Source: Jiangella alba
GTDB taxonomy: Bacteria; Actinomycetota; Actinomycetes; Jiangellales; Jiangellaceae
NCBI RefSeq assembly: GCF_900106035.1
Contig: NZ_FNUC01000004.1
Coordinates: 3,135,722-3,199,721, forward strand
DNA: 64,000 nucleotides
Direction of reading: 5' to 3'
Positions 3,337 to 57,404 of the stretch are shown here, piece by piece. The position numbers and the translations under genes were made by a program. Numbering within the stretch: position 1 is the stretch's first letter; the number at the start of each line of letters is the position of its first letter. Below the pieces are notes generated by a model, which saw only the letters and a list, made by a program, of their open reading frames with translations, was not told where the DNA came from and made no database searches.

Positions 3337-3480
3337 GTGTGGCCCGCCCTGCTGGGGTGCTCACCCCCGCTGGGGCGGCCCGCCCTGCTGGGGTGCTCAC
3401 CCCTGGCGGGGCGGCCGGCGGAGTGGGCGTGGGCGGTCCCGCTCGGGGCGCTGACCCTGGCGGGGCGGGCCGATGGAGGC
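3337..3480. repeat. Intergenic tandem repeat (~36-bp period, 26-bp core ggcccgccctgctggggtgctcaccc twice, plus repeated ccctggcggggcgg)
   Basis: Read directly in the convergent intergenic region between the M14 gene and the phosphodiesterase gene. Confidence 0.6.
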
Positions 3481-3526
3481 CCGCCCCGCTGGGTGGGTGT
3501 CCTCGCTTGTGGCGGCGATCCGATGC

Positions 3527-3583
3527 GGTAGGTATGACCCGCCCCTTGAGGGAGGGTGCCCACCCTACGGGCGGGCACCGACA
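3527..3583. repeat. REP-like palindromic element, copy 1 (ggtaggtatgaccc…cccaccctacgggcgggcaccgaca)
   Basis: Near-palindromic core tgcccaccctacgggcgggca. Related copies occur at 5702-5750, 11415-11456, 11549-11590, 11705-11747 and 56417-56475. Confidence 0.55.
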
Positions 3584-3654
3584 CGCTCCGCCGACGCCGA
3601 CGCCGACGCCGGGCCTTGCCGTGGTGCTGTCGTCGGGCGGACCCGGCGACGGGG

Positions 3655-5550
3655 TCAGAGTGCCCGTGCGTCGGCGGCGATCAGGGCGGCCAGTTCGGCC
3701 GGCAGCTGGTGGCCGCCGACCCCGGCCTCGGCGATCGAGGCGACCCGGATCCAGTCGGACCGGTCGATGGCGCGCAGCAACTGGTCGCGCAGCGCGCGCT
3801 CGACGTCCGGTCCGGTGGCGAGGCGCACCAGCCCGGCCGCCGACGGCTGCACCGTCACCGTGGTGGTCGCGGTGGCGGTGCCGCTGACGCCGGTGGCCGT
3901 CACCTCGAGGGTGTGCTCGCCCGCGGCCAGCGTGTCGACGGCGATGGCGGAGCCCTCGGCGACCTCCGCGCCGTCCAGCGTGAGCGCGATCGACTCGGCC
4001 CGCTCCGACGTCACCGCCGGCACCAGCACGTCGCCGCGGGTCAGCGTCGCGCCGTCGGCCGGGGCCGCGAACGCCACGGTGGGCTCGTCCGGCACCGTCT
4101 GCACGTGCCGTGCGTTCCAGCCGACCAGCTCGCCCGGCTTGTTCGTGATGACGCCGTCGACGCCGAGGTCGCGCAGGATGGCCCACTGGGCCGGGTCGTC
4201 GATGGTGTACGGCATGACGGCGATCTCGGCCTCGTGCAGGTCGGCGATGACGTCGGTGCTGGTCTGCAGCGCCGTCCACGACGGGTTGTAACTGACGACG
4301 CCGAGGTCGCGCGCCATCGCGACCGGGTCGGCGTCGAGGCTGGAGCGCAGCAGGCCGAGCCGCAGCTCCGGCTCGATCGCCCGCACGTCGCGCAACACCT
4401 GCACGTCGAAGCTCTGCAGCAGGGTCTGCTCGATCAGGCCCTGCTCGCGCAGCTGGCCGACGATGACCTCCAGCTCGGCGTACGTCTCCGGGCCCTTGAC
4501 CTCCAGCAGCAGCACCGGCGCGCGGCCCTTCATCAGCGCCAGCACGTCGAGCAGCGTCGGCACCGGCTGGCCGGTGAACGCCGTCGAGAACCACGACCCG
4601 GCGTCGAGGCCCTCGATGTAGTCGGACGTCACGGCCGGCAGCGCGCCGGTGCCGTCGGTGGTCCGGTCGAGGGTGTTGTCGTGCAGGATGATCGGCACGC
4701 CGTCGGCGCTGCTCGCGACGTCGACCTCGACGTAGTCGGCGCCGCTGCGCAGCGCGGACTCCACTGCGGCGAGGGTGTTCTCGGGCGCGACCGACGAGTA
4801 GCCGCGGTGCGCCACCACGGCGGGCGTCGACCCGGGGCCGACCGGTCGGATCACCGGCTCCTCCTCGAGTTCCGTGACGACGACGTCGTCGAACGATACG
4901 GTGCTGCCGTTCACGATCAGGCCCAGCACGCCTTGGTCGGAGCGCTGCAGCGCGCTGGTGCGCATGACCTCCTGGCCGTCGAAGATCCAGGTGGCCCGGC
5001 TGCCGCGCACCTCGACGGCGATGCGGACGTCGGTGCCCGTGCCGGCCGCGTGCGGCGCGGCGGCCGTGTTCGTCACGTTCCAGCCGTCGGACGTGGTGCG
5101 CTGGGCGAACTCGAGCCCGTTGGCGGCGGTGGTGCCGCTGCGCATGGTGGCGATCCACCACGGCGTGGACCCGTCGGGCGCGATGTCCATGCCGACGGCG
5201 GTCCAGCGGGCGGCGTTGGCGACCTGCTCGAACCTCGCCGTCAGCTCGACCCGGAAGTTGCGCAGGTGCGGCCCGAACGTGATGCGCGACAACTGGCTCG
5301 ACGACGTGCTGACGCCGACCAGCCGCCCGTCCGATACCGACCACTGGCCGTCGACGGCGGTCCAGCCGGCGGGGATCTCACCGCCTTCGAAGTCCTCGCT
5401 GAGGACGACTGCGGGTTCGGCTGTTTCGGCTGGTTCCGCTGCCGCGGGCGCCGCGACGGTTGCCGCGCTGAGGGCGGCGGCCGGCAGGGCGGCGGCGAGG
5501 GCGACGGCCAGGGTCGCGGTCCGGAGTAGGGACGGTCTGGGTAGGCGCAC
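3655..5550 (-). CDS. Secreted glycerophosphodiester phosphodiesterase (GDPD/GlpQ-like) with an N-terminal LamG/DUF1080-like domain
   Basis: Signal peptide (LAVALAAALPAAALSAATVAAPAAA). GDPD motif block VVAHRGYSSVAPENTLAAVESALRSGADYVEVDVASSADGVPIILHDNTLDRTTDG. GTG start at 5550. Confidence 0.8.
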   Translation of the reverse strand: MRLPRPSLLRTATLAVALAAALPAAALSAATVAAPAAAEPAETAEPAVVLSEDFEGGEIPAGWTAVDGQWSVSDGRLVGVSTSSSQLSRITFGPHLRNFRVELTARFEQVANAARWTAVGMDIAPDGSTPWWIATMRSGTTAANGLEFAQRTTSDGWNVTNTAAAPHAAGTGTDVRIAVEVRGSRATWIFDGQEVMRTSALQRSDQGVLGLIVNGSTVSFDDVVVTELEEEPVIRPVGPGSTPAVVAHRGYSSVAPENTLAAVESALRSGADYVEVDVASSADGVPIILHDNTLDRTTDGTGALPAVTSDYIEGLDAGSWFSTAFTGQPVPTLLDVLALMKGRAPVLLLEVKGPETYAELEVIVGQLREQGLIEQTLLQSFDVQVLRDVRAIEPELRLGLLRSSLDADPVAMARDLGVVSYNPSWTALQTSTDVIADLHEAEIAVMPYTIDDPAQWAILRDLGVDGVITNKPGELVGWNARHVQTVPDEPTVAFAAPADGATLTRGDVLVPAVTSERAESIALTLDGAEVAEGSAIAVDTLAAGEHTLEVTATGVSGTATATTTVTVQPSAAGLVRLATGPDVERALRDQLLRAIDRSDWIRVASIAEAGVGGHQLPAELAALIAADARAL

Positions 5551-5590
5551 GGGGTCCTCCAGGGTGGGGGGTTTCCGGGATGCTACGGAT

Positions 5591-5614
5591 CGTCACTGAA
5601 TGCCGGTTGAACAC
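5591..5614 (-). promoter_or_regulatory. Candidate PhoP box upstream of the GlpQ-like gene (GTTCAAC-4 nt-ATTCAGT, exact 11-nt register)
   Basis: On the gene strand it reads ggtGTTCAACcggcATTCAGTgacg, about 45-65 nt upstream of the start. It resembles the actinomycete PHO-box direct-repeat unit GTTCACC with 11-nt spacing. Confidence 0.35.
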
Positions 5615-5701
5615 CGGGTGGCGCTCCCGGTGCCCGGCGGCGCACGCGCGTGTCGGCTGCCTTGTCCGGTGCGTTCGGCGACGTCGCGGTGGCTGGTAGG
5701 T

Positions 5702-5750
5702 GGACCCCTCCCGGCCCGGGTGAGGCCCACCCTACGGGCGGGCGCCGACA
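5702..5750. repeat. REP-like element, copy 2 (gacccctcccggcccgggtgaggcccaccctacgggcgggcgccgaca)
   Basis: Shares the cccaccctacgggcgggc…ccgaca core with copy 1. It sits immediately 5' of the 18-bp array. Confidence 0.55.
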
Positions 5751-5957
5751 CACTCGGCCGCGCCGACACACTCGGCCGCGCCGACACACTCGCCCGCGCT
5801 GACAAACGCGCCCGCGCTGACAAACGCGCCCGTGCGGGCAGGCTCGGCCGCGGGGGCAGGCTCGCTCGCGGGGGCAGGCTCGCCCGCGCGCGCAGACTCG
5901 GCCGCGCGCGCAGACTCGGCCGCGCCGGGAGGCTCGCCCGCGCCGACGACCTCGGCC
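5742..5957. repeat. Tandem array of twelve 18-bp units (gcgNNNNcaNNctcgNcc) occurring as duplicated pairs
   Basis: Units: gcgccgacacactcggcc x3, gcgctgacaaacgcgccc x2, gcgggggcaggctcgNNc x3, gcgcgcgcagactcggcc x2, and others. It lies between the cupin stop at 5976 and the phosphodiesterase start at 5550. Confidence 0.85.
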
Positions 5958-5975
5958 GCGCCGGAGCATGCGCCG

Positions 5976-6719
5976 CTATCCCACGAGCGCGGCCACGTCC
6001 CAGGTGCGCAGCCGCCCGCACATGCCGTACCGGTAGGGCTGTTCGCGCCGCTCGCCGACGTGTACCGACGCGGCGTGAAGGTGGCTCGCGTCGCCACCGG
6101 CCAGCGCCGTCAGCACCCGGCCGGTCTCGTCGACCCCGGCGCGCACGGACTGCTGCCACGTCGACTGCCAGCCCGGCACCTTCGCCGCGACCAGCACGCC
6201 GGCCCGCTCGTACAGCGACGACAGCGCGCCCGGCCCCTCCACTTCGACGCGGCGGCGGAGGTCGGCGAAGCCGGCCAGCGCGAGGTCGCGGCGGGCCCGG
6301 GCCGAGGCGGCGACGGCGTCCTCCCCGGACTCGGGTCCGGACGGCAGCGCCGCGGCCGCCGCGTACCGCGCGGGGTCGGCCAGCACCTCGTCGGGGAAGG
6401 TGAAGACGGCGTCGCCGGCCTCGGGCAGCCCGGCGTTCTGCATGACGACGACGATCTGCAGGCCGCCGTCGTTGACCAGCCGGTGCACCGTCCCCGGCGT
6501 GAACCACAGCACGGTGCCCGCGGTCAGCGGGTGCGAGCCCACACCGTCGGCACTCAGCGTCTCCAGCCGGCCGCTGCCGCCGACCACCACGTACCCCTCG
6601 CCCGACGCCGTGTGCAGGTGCGGCGACCCGCCGGCCAGTCCGTCGTCGCCGGGCCAGTCGTAGACGGTGAGATGGCTGACCGCCGTTCCGCCGGGGAACC
6701 CCGGCCGCCCTGCACCCAT
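5976..6719 (-). CDS. Cupin-domain protein
   Basis: 247 aa. Two-His cupin-like motif region (…GGSPHLHTASGEGYVVVGGSGRLE…GTVLWFTPGTVHRL…). Confidence 0.5.
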   Translation of the reverse strand: MGAGRPGFPGGTAVSHLTVYDWPGDDGLAGGSPHLHTASGEGYVVVGGSGRLETLSADGVGSHPLTAGTVLWFTPGTVHRLVNDGGLQIVVVMQNAGLPEAGDAVFTFPDEVLADPARYAAAAALPSGPESGEDAVAASARARRDLALAGFADLRRRVEVEGPGALSSLYERAGVLVAAKVPGWQSTWQQSVRAGVDETGRVLTALAGGDASHLHAASVHVGERREQPYRYGMCGRLRTWDVAALVG

Positions 6720-11274: not shown

Positions 11275-11298
11275 CGGTGTGACTCCCTCTGCCGGGGG

Positions 11299-11328
11299 CA
11301 CGAACGTGGTGTCACAGCGTAGGTAAAC
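11299..11328 (-). promoter_or_regulatory. Candidate PhoP box upstream of phoX paralogue 2 (GTTTACC … CTGTGAC … GTTCGTG)
   Basis: On the gene strand it reads GTTTACCtacgCTGTGACaccaCGTTCGTGccc, 25-55 nt upstream of the proposed ATG. Confidence 0.3.
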
Positions 11329-11385
11329 ATTCACCCGTTGGCTACCAAAAAGTCACGAAAAGCGCGGCGACTGTTTCCGCGTGCT

Positions 11386-11750
11386 CCGGCCGGCGGTTCA
11401 CGCCTGGTTGACGTGGCCCGCCCGTAGGGTGGGTGCCCTCCCGGCCGGGAGGGGCCCGACTCCCTCCGCCGAGCCCCGGGCCTCGCGCCGGGGTTGGCCG
11501 CCGGTTCACGCCTGGTTGGCCGGTCGCCGGTTCATGCCTGGTTAACGTGGCCCGCCCGTAGGGTGGGTGCCCTCCCGGCCGGGAGGGGCCCGAGCCCTCC
11601 GCCGACCTCGAGCCTCGCGCCGGGTTGGCCGCCGGTTCGCGCCTGGTTGGCCCGCCGGCGGTTCGCGCCTGGTTGGCCGGCCGCCGGTTCACGCCTGGTT
11701 AACGTGGCCCGCCCGTAGGGTGGGTGCCCTCCCGGCCGGGAGGGGCCTGG
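11386..11750. repeat. Complex nested tandem repeat region containing three REP-like copies and six copies of ccggttcNcgcctggttNNc
   Basis: REP copies at 11415-11456, 11549-11590 and 11705-11747 (gcccgcccgtagggtgggtgccctcccggccgggaggggcc). They contain the perfect 18-bp palindrome ccctcccggccgggaggg. The higher-order unit is about 115-130 bp. Confidence 0.85.
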
Positions 11751-11835
11751 ACCCCGGCCGACCGGCAAGGCCCCCGGCCAACCGGCAAGCGCCCCGGCCA
11801 ACCGGCAAGGGCCCCGGCCAACCGGCAGGAACCCG
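11750..11835. repeat. 20-bp short tandem repeat (ccggccaaccggcaagNgcc, about 4 copies)
   Basis: Read directly in the sequence, immediately 3' of the nested repeat region. Confidence 0.8.
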
Positions 11836-28781: not shown

Positions 28782-29605
28782 CCGCCGGGGGCCTCGCCGA
28801 GCACGTCAGCCCGTCGCTGTTCGCCACGAGCCGCGTGCTGCTGGTCAACGACGTCCAGGACGTCAGCGAACCGGTCGGCGACCTGCTGGTGGGTTACGTG
28901 ACCTCGCCCATCGAGGGCATCTACGTGGTGCTGCTGCATCCCGGTGGGGTCAAGGGCAAGAAGCTGCTCACGGCGTTGCGCAAGGCCGGCATCCACGAGG
29001 TCCCGGCCGAGCGGCTGACCCGGCCCGACGACCAGGTCTCGTTCGTGCGCGCCGAGGTGCGCCGGCAGGGCGGCCGCATCGACGAGGCGGCCGCGCGGCA
29101 GCTGGTCGAGTCCGTCGGCGCCGACCTGCGCGGGCTGGCCTCGGCGGCCGGCCAACTGGCGGTCGACGCGCCGGACGGGCAGGTCACGGGCCAGGTGGTC
29201 GCGATGTACTTCGAGGGTCGCGCCGAGGTGAAGGGCTGGGTCGTCGCCGACCGCGCCGTCGAGGGCAAGACCGGCGAGGCGGTCGAGCAGTTGCGCTGGG
29301 CGCTCGAGACCGGAACCGACCCGGTGCTGGTCACGGGCGCGCTGGCGACCTCGCTGCGGTCCCTGGCCCGGCTGGCCGGCGCGCCGCGCGGCATGCGCGA
29401 CGCCGACGTCGCTCGTGACCTGGGCATTCCGCCGTGGAAGATCCGGGTGCTTCGTGGCCAACTGCGCGGCTGGACGCCGACCGGCCTGGCCCGCGCCGTC
29501 CGCGCCGTCGCCGACGCCGACCTCGCGGTCAAGGGCGGCGGCAACGATGCGACGCTCGCGCTCACGACGGCACTGGTCGCCATCGGGACTGCTCGCGCCG
29601 CCTGA
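28595..29605 (+). CDS. holA: DNA polymerase III delta subunit
   Basis: 336-aa ORF with a HolA-like N-terminal region (…VTLVFGPEALLAERAA…). Conserved position between comEC and rpsT. The start may be an internal Met. Confidence 0.7.
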   Translation: MSAGRDMLCGDMAALSTDPLVPVTLVFGPEALLAERAAGAVVRAARAADADADVSQVSGSELTAGGLAEHVSPSLFATSRVLLVNDVQDVSEPVGDLLVGYVTSPIEGIYVVLLHPGGVKGKKLLTALRKAGIHEVPAERLTRPDDQVSFVRAEVRRQGGRIDEAAARQLVESVGADLRGLASAAGQLAVDAPDGQVTGQVVAMYFEGRAEVKGWVVADRAVEGKTGEAVEQLRWALETGTDPVLVTGALATSLRSLARLAGAPRGMRDADVARDLGIPPWKIRVLRGQLRGWTPTGLARAVRAVADADLAVKGGGNDATLALTTALVAIGTARAA

Positions 29606-29737
29606 GCTCGGCACCCTGGCGCGGCACTGCTGAACGTCGGCCGAACGCTGGCGCTCACGACGGCGCTGGTCGCCATCGGGACCGCTCGCGCCGCCTGAGC
29701 TCGGCACCCTGGCGCGGCACTGCAGAACGTCGGGCGA
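29552..29737 (+). repeat. Tandem direct duplication (2 x 93 bp, about 94% identity) of the 3' end of holA including its stop codon
   Basis: Copy 1 is 29552-29644 and includes the holA TGA at 29603-29605. Copy 2 is 29645-29737. Confidence 0.85.
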
Positions 29738-29895
29738 ACGACTGCGGCCGACGGTGTCCATGGAGCGTCAGCGGCGCCTTGCGGGGCGGTGCCCTGTGTT
29801 CGCGGTGAGGGTGCCGGATGTGTCCGCTGTGGCGCTGCCGCGTGGTGCGGAGCGTCGTTAGCGGGGCGCAGGCGACGGGCGCGTGGGCACGACAA

Positions 29896-51452: not shown

Positions 51453-57404
<5,952 letters not shown>

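Follow-up and report, generated by a model that had tools for sequence, protein, structure and literature searches.

The short palindromic repeats found along a 64-kb stretch of the Jiangella alba chromosome (the whole of the DNA analyzed here, called the window) probably belong to a family of small, non-autonomous REP/MITE-type palindromes that is restricted to the genus Jiangella, and we infer that these elements move as a folded strand and provoke replication slippage at their edges. REP-type elements are well studied in Proteobacteria. The best reading is that the Jiangella family is new and that the REP/MITE-like kind to which it belongs is already known, with hardly any documentation in Actinomycetota; a literature search found no published description of this Jiangella family. 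Two features go beyond what is ordinary for such elements, namely the frequency of neighbouring minisatellites and the in-frame insertions into proteins.

Anatomy of the element and its copies in the window

Oriented on the strand that gives GCCCGCCCGTAGGGTGGG, the copies share a unit of ~60 nt in which a conserved 8-nt box, TGTC(G/A)G(T/C)G, is followed by two adjacent GC hairpins and a variable tail (for example, GACCGTACCC or TCATACCTACC). Hairpin 1, GCCCGCCC-GTA-GGGTGGG, has 8 pairs with a central G.T pair, and a linker of 1-4 nt separates it from hairpin 2, which consists of CCC(T/A)CCC, a loop of 4-5 nt and GGG(C/A)GGG. All four arms have the form C3NC3 or G3NG3, arm patterns that are partly imposed by the parsing, just as the 100% conservation of hairpin 1 is partly forced by exact-match sampling. 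Hairpin 1 is asymmetric with respect to strand, carrying the G.T pair on one strand and A.C on the other. In hairpin 2, 89 of 92 copies have a non-Watson-Crick central pair (T.C in 55, A.C in 22 and A.A in 12), and the three cases with a T-A pair are the window's triplicated copies 3-5, described below.

An alternative long hairpin that pairs arm 1 with arm 4 and arm 2 with arm 3 is feasible, the arm 1:arm 4 central pair being G-C in 77 of the 92 copies. Since the loops are constant (3 nt and 4-5 nt) and the linker is short and variable, the two-hairpin form appears, as judged from the sequences, to fit better than the long hairpin. The tetranucleotide GTAG is invariant in the Jiangella element and spans the loop and the 3' arm of hairpin 1; it comes to lie at a hairpin foot solely in the alternative arm 2:arm 3 pairing, the loop of which would be 1-4 nt. 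We rejected an extended hairpin in which the 5' box pairs with the 3' tail, as the two do not covary (325 observed vs 330 in shuffles). Predicted minimum free energies are no better than those of dinucleotide shuffles in five of the six window copies, copy 1 being the only one that folds better (z = -3.6).

The window is core chromosome, encoding leuS, comEC, rpsT, lepA, an opp-type ABC transporter, two phoX genes, a GDPD gene and a GH2 beta-galactosidase, and no transposase is present in its 64 kb. The LepA encoded there has 100% identity to LepA of J. alba; an exact look-up of the aminotransferase gave no record, probably owing to the choice of start codon. The dispersed palindromic repeat family that the earlier note on this DNA described there is real. 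The 18-mer core CCCACCCTACGGGCGGGC is enriched, with exact occurrences at 3559 and 5726 on the plus strand and at 11416, 11550 and 11707 on the minus strand (5 matches vs 0.38 expected by chance), and none of 100 shuffles reaches 6 core matches. With an nhmmer profile made from 91 Jiangella copies, the matches in the window below E = 0.1 are the six reported copies (E = 1.5e-14 to 1.8e-5) and no others. Hairpins of the C3NC3-loop-G3NG3 type are likewise confined in the window to element sites, including an inverted solo hairpin at 3480-3497 (0.04 expected). The claim of at least six copies holds as a count, but the three at 11.4-11.7 kb are a single local tandem triplication, and the window therefore holds four independent sites rather than six. 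Similarly, the proposed extension of the core (cccaccc...ccgaca) is seen in the three copies outside the 11.4-11.7 kb array and fails in the array copies, while the perfect 18-bp palindrome ascribed to three copies, CCCTCCCGGCCGGGAGGG, does occur exactly three times (11436, 11570 and 11727), adjoining the last three cores.

Copy 1 (3523-3586, minus strand; nhmmer E = 1.5e-14) is a full element with the TGTCGGTG box, hairpin 1, hairpin 2 with a TCAA loop and a TCATACCTACC tail, located in the convergent spacer between the GDPD and M14 peptidase genes, 69 nt 3' of the GDPD stop codon. The solo hairpin beside it (3480-3497, plus strand) is a hairpin-1-like palindrome, CCCGCCC-CGCT-GGGTGGG, in inverted orientation, which makes the pair a partial tail-to-tail doublet. 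A 36-bp x2.1 tandem repeat of GC hairpin units (3341-3416), within a J. alba-specific inserted block, lies on the 3' side of copy 1, and a (CGCCGA)x3.8 tandem repeat (3589-3611) starts 3 nt from its 5' box. Copy 2 (5690-5754, minus strand; E = 1.8e-12), between the cupin stop and the GDPD start, is also full, with the box TGTCGGCG, a GGGCC loop in hairpin 2 and a TCCACCTACC tail. An 18-bp x12.3 tandem array (5742-5963) begins within its 5' box; the proximal units are GCCGACAC, the reverse complement of the box, and the distal ones are progressively divergent.

Copies 3, 4 and 5 (11404-11466, 11538-11600 and 11695-11757, all on the plus strand and all recovered by nhmmer) make up a tandem triplication of a 101-nt unit (11404-11757) with spacings of 134 and 157 nt. 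Copy 3 (E = 1.4e-9) is a variant in which a 5' extension, GGTTCACGCCTGGTTGACGTG, replaces the TGTCGG box and hairpin 2 is perfect (CCCTCCCGGCCGGGAGGG); copies 4 and 5 are the second and third units. The three 101-nt units are embedded in a composite block of ~445 nt (11363-11831, plus strand), together with 26-bp repeats of the 5' extension, present in 1, 2 and 3 copies ahead of the successive elements, and a 20-bp x3.8 array.

Copy 6 (56412-56478, minus strand) is decayed: it retains the box, hairpin 2 and an CACCTACC tail but has a broken hairpin 1 (GCCCGCCCTCATGGTCAAGC). A search allowing 3 mismatches missed it, and nhmmer recovered it at E = 1.8e-5. The earlier note had called this copy (56417-56475) intragenic, and it is indeed read in frame, on the plus strand, within the GH2 beta-galactosidase gene. 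It forms part of an in-frame insertion of ~74-77 codons in the Bgal_small_N domain (56336-56566, plus strand), in which a 21/42-bp tandem duplication of the host motif GSGLAVEG is followed by copy 6 and then by a 24-bp x2.3 repeat. The insertion (~74-77 residues with copy 6) is missing from all seven aligned homologues; in the GH2 search, the local alignments of nearly all of the at least 120 matches listed cover just part of the query. The beta-galactosidase P0036 of Phytoactinopolyspora endophytica, also of the Jiangellaceae, has an in-frame repetitive insertion of its own (NTVGNSVGENSVVGNSVVGNS...TLTTLTALTAL) at a different place (alignment A2, columns 625-665), a hint that tandem expansions of this in-frame type are frequent among the Jiangellaceae.

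Distribution, placement and turnover in Jiangella

We scanned one genome per species (185,579 species) with exact patterns, and at least 120 loci matched. Among the matches listed are at least 102 full-architecture copies in 92 Jiangella loci, drawn from ~0.74 Mb of sampled Jiangella DNA and distributed over six species other than J. alba: J. muralis, J. endophytica, J. rhizosphaerae, J. ureilytica, J. aurantiaca and J. anatolica. One MAG labelled Nocardioidaceae among these matches also carries a full copy, and the remaining non-Jiangella matches listed contain hairpin 1 only, in unrelated contexts. The family thus extends beyond the window, contrary to the first outcome that the earlier note had named as fatal to its proposal, and its description as lineage-specific and REP/MITE-like agrees with both this distribution and the REP-like placement described below. 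Two family-specific patterns had zero matches in 241 million metagenome contig records. Rfam yields no match in the window at gathering score and, over the element regions at E<=1, only one unrelated snoRNA match, due to chance, within the GDPD gene.

Two observations on individual loci may be recorded here. At an orthologous site in three Streptomyces genomes (L016, L114 and L116), the core 18-mer occurs as GTGCGCGCCCGCCCGTAGGGTGGGCGCATG immediately before an ATG; with TAGGGT 7 nt upstream, it looks like a conserved leaderless-mRNA promoter plus hairpin that is unrelated to the Jiangella family. In J. ureilytica, a perfect tail-to-tail inverted doublet is found at a contig start (L077:3-77), the only clear REPIN-like dimer seen.

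Placement relative to genes was determined with a crude GC3-based ORF caller on 8-kb loci, by which ~80% of the copies are intergenic: 24 lie in convergent, 10 in divergent and 37 in unidirectional spacers, and 22 more are inside ORFs. Convergent spacers are favoured over divergent ones (24 vs 10, p = 0.024). In unidirectional spacers the copies lie a median of 75 nt from the upstream stop vs 280 nt from the next start, with 27 of the 37 nearer to the stop (p = 0.008), and distances from stops are spread over 10-200 nt or more. Orientation relative to transcription is not biased among these unidirectional copies (15 co-oriented vs 22 anti-oriented, n = 37), and a small sample gave no sign of strand clustering along contigs. 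Some copies are found in the promoter spacers of divergent genes, and some are read in frame within ORFs. Several of the intragenic copies are in real genes, with Pfam domains flanking the element on both sides: one lies between the HD and ACT domains of GlnD, one in the linker between the membrane and ATPase domains of an ABC transporter, one in the linker of a double ABC ATPase, and others are in frame in a WYL regulator, a LysR regulator and a multicopper oxidase.

The history of individual insertions can be followed by comparison of orthologous regions. We compared the surroundings of the GDPD gene with ~22 kb each from J. alkaliphila, J. endophytica and J. anatolica, and with a 13-kb stretch from J. 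ureilytica that covers the GDPD/M14 end only. Gene order is kept (aminotransferase, PhoX, PhoX, cupin, in some cases an epimerase, GDPD, M14 peptidase), and there are no family copies in any of the four species over these regions (for J. ureilytica, the GDPD/M14 end only). The spacers differ accordingly in length: the GDPD/M14 peptidase spacer measures 337 nt in J. alba vs 0-77 nt in the four other species, the cupin/GDPD spacer 425 nt vs 115 nt in J. anatolica, and the aminotransferase/PhoX spacer 576 nt vs 141-162 nt in three other species. The ~445-nt block with its three elements and arrays is wholly extra in the last of these J. alba spacers, and the three other species are without it. 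Because the window's three intergenic sites are empty in other Jiangella, these insertions are lineage-specific and were gained in the J. alba lineage. A Logan contig (SRR31343448_948, 2152 nt; L126) with a 97%-identical GDPD gene shares the first two J. alba insertions. This short-read contig terminates within the element at both ends, which indicates that the family fragments short-read assemblies. As a separate observation, an NAD-dependent epimerase gene stands between cupin and GDPD in J. alkaliphila, J. endophytica and J. ureilytica and is missing in J. alba and J. anatolica (window 5550-5976 compared with L122:9015-9899, L123:9033-9914 and L125:202-1101); the J. alba cupin/GDPD spacer, which lacks the epimerase, houses copy 2 and the 18-bp x12 array.

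Other copies persist. Eight orthologous sites are common to several species, for example J. muralis, J. endophytica and J. aurantiaca. At these sites the box is 91% and the arms are 92-94% identical, while linker, loop, tail and outer flanks show 50-61% identity, which is background for such alignments, and orthologous copies may carry different hairpin-2 subtypes. In this comparison, too, hairpin 1 identity is forced by the exact-match sampling, and the parsing partly imposes the arm patterns. Searches for target-site duplications found no fixed length, only a weak and inconsistent excess of 4-6-mers (for k = 4, 50 vs 40.7 expected). Taken as a whole, the mobility of the Jiangella element is well supported.

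Some motifs within and near the elements resemble regulatory signals. The sequence GGTTCACGCCTGGTT(G/A)AC, which has an 11-nt periodicity and adjoins the two phoX genes, was considered as a PHO-box promoter and rejected: it belongs to the 445-nt insertion specific to J. alba, orthologous phoX spacers lack it, and the one further occurrence, in J. muralis (L019), comes after a gene that is unrelated. The TAGGGT in hairpin 1 resembles a -10 box, a reading rejected for want of a sigma-70 consensus. A canonical intrinsic terminator was also rejected, with none predicted and no U-tract terminator consensus. Separately, a ~55-nt block upstream of phoX (window 11296-11352) is almost invariant in four Jiangella species (L122:3610-3670, L123, L124). 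On the phoX strand it reads TTCGTGACTTTTTGGTAGCCAACGGGTGAATGTTTACCTACGCTGTGAC, with 11-nt periodic TTCACC/GTCAC-like repeats followed by TACGCT, and by its sequence it is a better candidate for a PhoP box and -10 element than the element-borne repeats.

Tandem repeats beside the elements

The earlier note had remarked that most copies sit next to other tandem repeats. In the window such repeats abut all six copies, and the association holds across the genus: a tandem repeat of period 5 or more is found within 30 bp of 43 of 110 elements (39%), vs 181 of 1860 control windows (10%), the controls being random 60-nt spacer windows from the same loci. Repeats are thus ~4x more frequent beside copies (odds ratio 6, p = 5e-15). 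The arrays occur on either side of the element, often start within its terminal nucleotides, and have a unit that differs from site to site. The duplicated unit can be host coding sequence, as beside copy 6, where the repeated GSGLAVEG motif is conserved in the host protein. In the glnD gene of J. muralis (L014:4139-4385), the element between the HD and ACT domains is trailed by a 42-bp x5.7 in-frame repeat whose peptide units resemble PPDGDGAGLAVEMT; in the J. rhizosphaerae orthologue (L009) the 42-bp array is missing and there is just a 15-bp x2 repeat.

We also considered that repeat units on the 5' side might generally be copies of the TGTCGG box. This was unsupported (p = 0.36), and it is true only where arrays overlap the element end. 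Since 5'-side units are generally unlike the box, a slippage model rests on adjacency and on the individual cases; with that basis, hairpin-induced replication slippage would most simply explain the link between elements and tandem repeats. MIRU-type intergenic minisatellites of mycobacteria are variable-copy tandem arrays in actinobacterial spacers, as are the arrays in Jiangella. The Jiangella arrays differ from them in having a different unit at each site, in flanking a dispersed palindrome and in not being themselves a dispersed family.

Tandem repeats are also abundant in this DNA at large. TRF reports 61 rows in the 64 kb of the window, many of them with a period divisible by three and inside ORFs, and repeats make up 3.3% of the sampled Jiangella DNA. 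The stretch 29552-29740, between comEC and rpsT, is a 93-bp x2.0 tandem duplication (94% identical).

Relation to known elements and proposed mechanism

The closest parallels are the GTAG-tagged REP/REPIN elements mobilized by RAYT in E. coli, Pseudomonas and Stenotrophomonas, which are likewise short GC-rich imperfect palindromes of high copy number with subfamilies within and between species (PMC3733652, PMC6006769). Common to both are an invariant GTAG, the preference for unidirectional and convergent spacers near 3' ends, occasional in-frame copies, and vertical inheritance at orthologous sites combined with lineage-specific gains. The differences are several. The Jiangella host is an actinomycete, whereas a 2013 survey found GTAG and CGTC REPs only in Proteobacteria, Cyanobacteria, Chloroflexi, the PVC group, Chlorobi, Bacteroidetes, Spirochaetes and Thermotogae, with no Actinomycetota. 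Canonical REPs have GTAG at the hairpin foot, not in the loop and 3' arm, and lack the fixed pair of different hairpins with a TGTCGG box that makes up the Jiangella unit. They typically form inverted doublets (REPIN/BIME), whereas the Jiangella copies are nearly all single, the exceptions being the L077 pair and the partial doublet with 3480-3497 in the window; even so, a single Jiangella unit may be viewed as a pair of inverted C3NC3/G3NG3 palindromes. Most REPs are reported without association to other repeats, in contrast to the strong tandem-repeat association in Jiangella. Finally, the REPtron arrangement, a single-copy RAYT flanked by REPs, was not seen in the DNA searched: the RAYT-like transposase that the earlier note had suggested looking for was sought with an HUH plus Y-NPV regex and by tblastn with E. 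coli RayT, and nothing credible was found in 0.99 Mb of DNA (~2% of the Jiangella genomes), which makes this weak negative evidence. The Jiangella element therefore shares only part of the features of a canonical REP.

Other known families are further away. The CGTC/TGTC-tagged REPs of alpha-proteobacteria, Neisseria (dRS3) and Rickettsia (RPE-4/6) likewise have a TGTC tag 5' of an 8-bp stem, no identified transposase and, in places, in-frame intragenic copies. They are defined by an unpaired tag at one end, an 8-9 bp stem starting with two A-T pairs, a loop of 4-5 nt and a CCA tail. The Jiangella element falls outside this definition: its tag is 3-4 nt from the stem, the stem is all G-C or G.T without the two initial A-T pairs, the loop is the 3-nt GTA rather than 4-5 nt, and the tail is variable with no CCA. 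Rickettsia palindromic elements (RPE) resemble the in-frame copies in that they too add peptide segments in loops and linkers, but their sequences and hosts are unrelated, and most Jiangella copies are intergenic. The TRIT motif of Mycobacterium is, like ours, a palindrome of conserved sequence in one actinobacterial genus, with ~150 copies at gene termini; it keeps to a narrow range of positions around -8 relative to the stop codon and has been described as a terminator that works in both directions (PMC3152330). The Jiangella element has a different sequence, stands 10-200 nt or more from stops as well as in promoters and ORFs, and varies in presence or absence between species, so that genus, sequence and distance distribution all differ from those of TRIT.

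TRIT is nevertheless the model for the main rival reading, a doubtful one in our judgement, in which the element is not selfish but a selected cis-acting RNA or DNA signal, namely a terminator-like or 3'-end-protecting hairpin module, with a factor that might read the TGTCGGTG box and hairpin 1. The clustering of copies near stop codons and in convergent spacers would follow naturally from such a role, as would the retention of box and stems at orthologous sites where linkers, loops and flanks have diverged to background, and the 147 TRIT copies near gene ends provide a precedent within Actinobacteria (PMC3152330). But a signal read in RNA is hard to reconcile with the lack of orientation bias (15 vs 22), given that one strand alone gives a G.U-compatible hairpin 1, and neither a U-tract nor a terminator consensus is present. 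Copies in divergent promoter spacers and in frame inside ORFs also speak against it, and the orthologous genes in four species (J. ureilytica over the GDPD/M14 end only) manage without the J. alba copies. Selection on some copies would be compatible with secondary exaptation of a mobile element.

The other alternatives concern how the copies arose or what they form. A classical MITE, that is, a deletion derivative of a DDE-type IS moved as double-stranded DNA via terminal inverted repeats and leaving target-site duplications, is unlikely. The outer arms CCCGCCC and GGGCGGG are, to be sure, perfect inverted repeats in the copies with the central G-C pair (77 of 92), the match extends in the commonest subfamily to CGGTGCCCGCCC / GGGCGGGGACCG as read from the alignment, and short direct repeats flanking copies are weakly enriched (50 vs 40.7 for k = 4). 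Yet no target-site duplication of fixed length accompanies these ends, the 3' tail varies greatly and shows no covariation with the 5' box, and neither a transposase nor a parent IS or longer element with matching ends was found in the ~1 Mb searched; the conserved central mismatches, moreover, suggest recognition of a folded single strand. That the repeats are G-quadruplex or i-motif sequences acting on replication or transcription we regard as very improbable. Each strand does carry four G3 tracts (G3-N-G3 ... G3-N-G3; GGGTGGG ... GGGCGGG on one strand and GGGNGGG ... GGGCGGG on the other), and a structure blocking replication would also fit the neighbouring tandem repeats, but because the complementary C-rich arms are immediately adjacent, hairpins should out-compete quadruplexes, and this reading does not account for the conservation of the box, for the GTA loop or for the restriction of the other loop to 4-5 nt. 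The idea that the copies are pieces of larger segmental duplications or assembly artefacts, which the earlier note had also named as potentially fatal, describes the local triplication at 11404-11757 and is refuted for the family as a whole, since the other copies have unrelated flanks and more than 100 copies occur in differing gene contexts in six independently assembled species; as a general account it is almost certainly wrong.

Returning to the reading as a mobile REP/MITE-kind family, three features suggest that a protein acting in trans recognizes a folded single strand: the box is invariant, the hairpins are imperfect and keep their central mismatches, and the two strands are asymmetric. 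The element would then move as a folded single strand, recognized via its imperfect hairpins and box, with the enzyme supplied in trans and an HUH/Y1 (RAYT-like) transposase as the leading candidate. Its stable hairpins would stall replication and provoke slippage, giving rise to variable arrays at the element edges, including duplications of host coding sequence. A role at the RNA level, such as 3' end protection, would be secondary, and some copies may have been exapted.

More speculatively, and with a good deal less confidence than in the family itself, the element could represent a new actinobacterial type of hairpin transposon that operates without RAYT and whose folded ends repeatedly seed minisatellites. 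If so, each insertion would be a local generator of tandem duplications of the element termini and the adjacent host DNA, producing variable spacers and, in linkers such as those of GlnD, ABC transporters and beta-galactosidase, in-frame repeat peptides; a mobile palindrome would be tied directly to the birth of tandem repeats and to the evolution of protein linkers in a high-GC genome. The elements break short-read assemblies, as in L126, and inflate the number of predicted ORFs, so that Jiangella genomes would be better annotated if the elements were marked. With sites filled and empty between species, persistence that preserves structure, in-frame copies and the link to tandem arrays, Jiangella is a tractable system in which to address how hairpin elements move in high-GC Gram-positives, whether they need a RAYT-like enzyme, and whether hairpins seed minisatellites.
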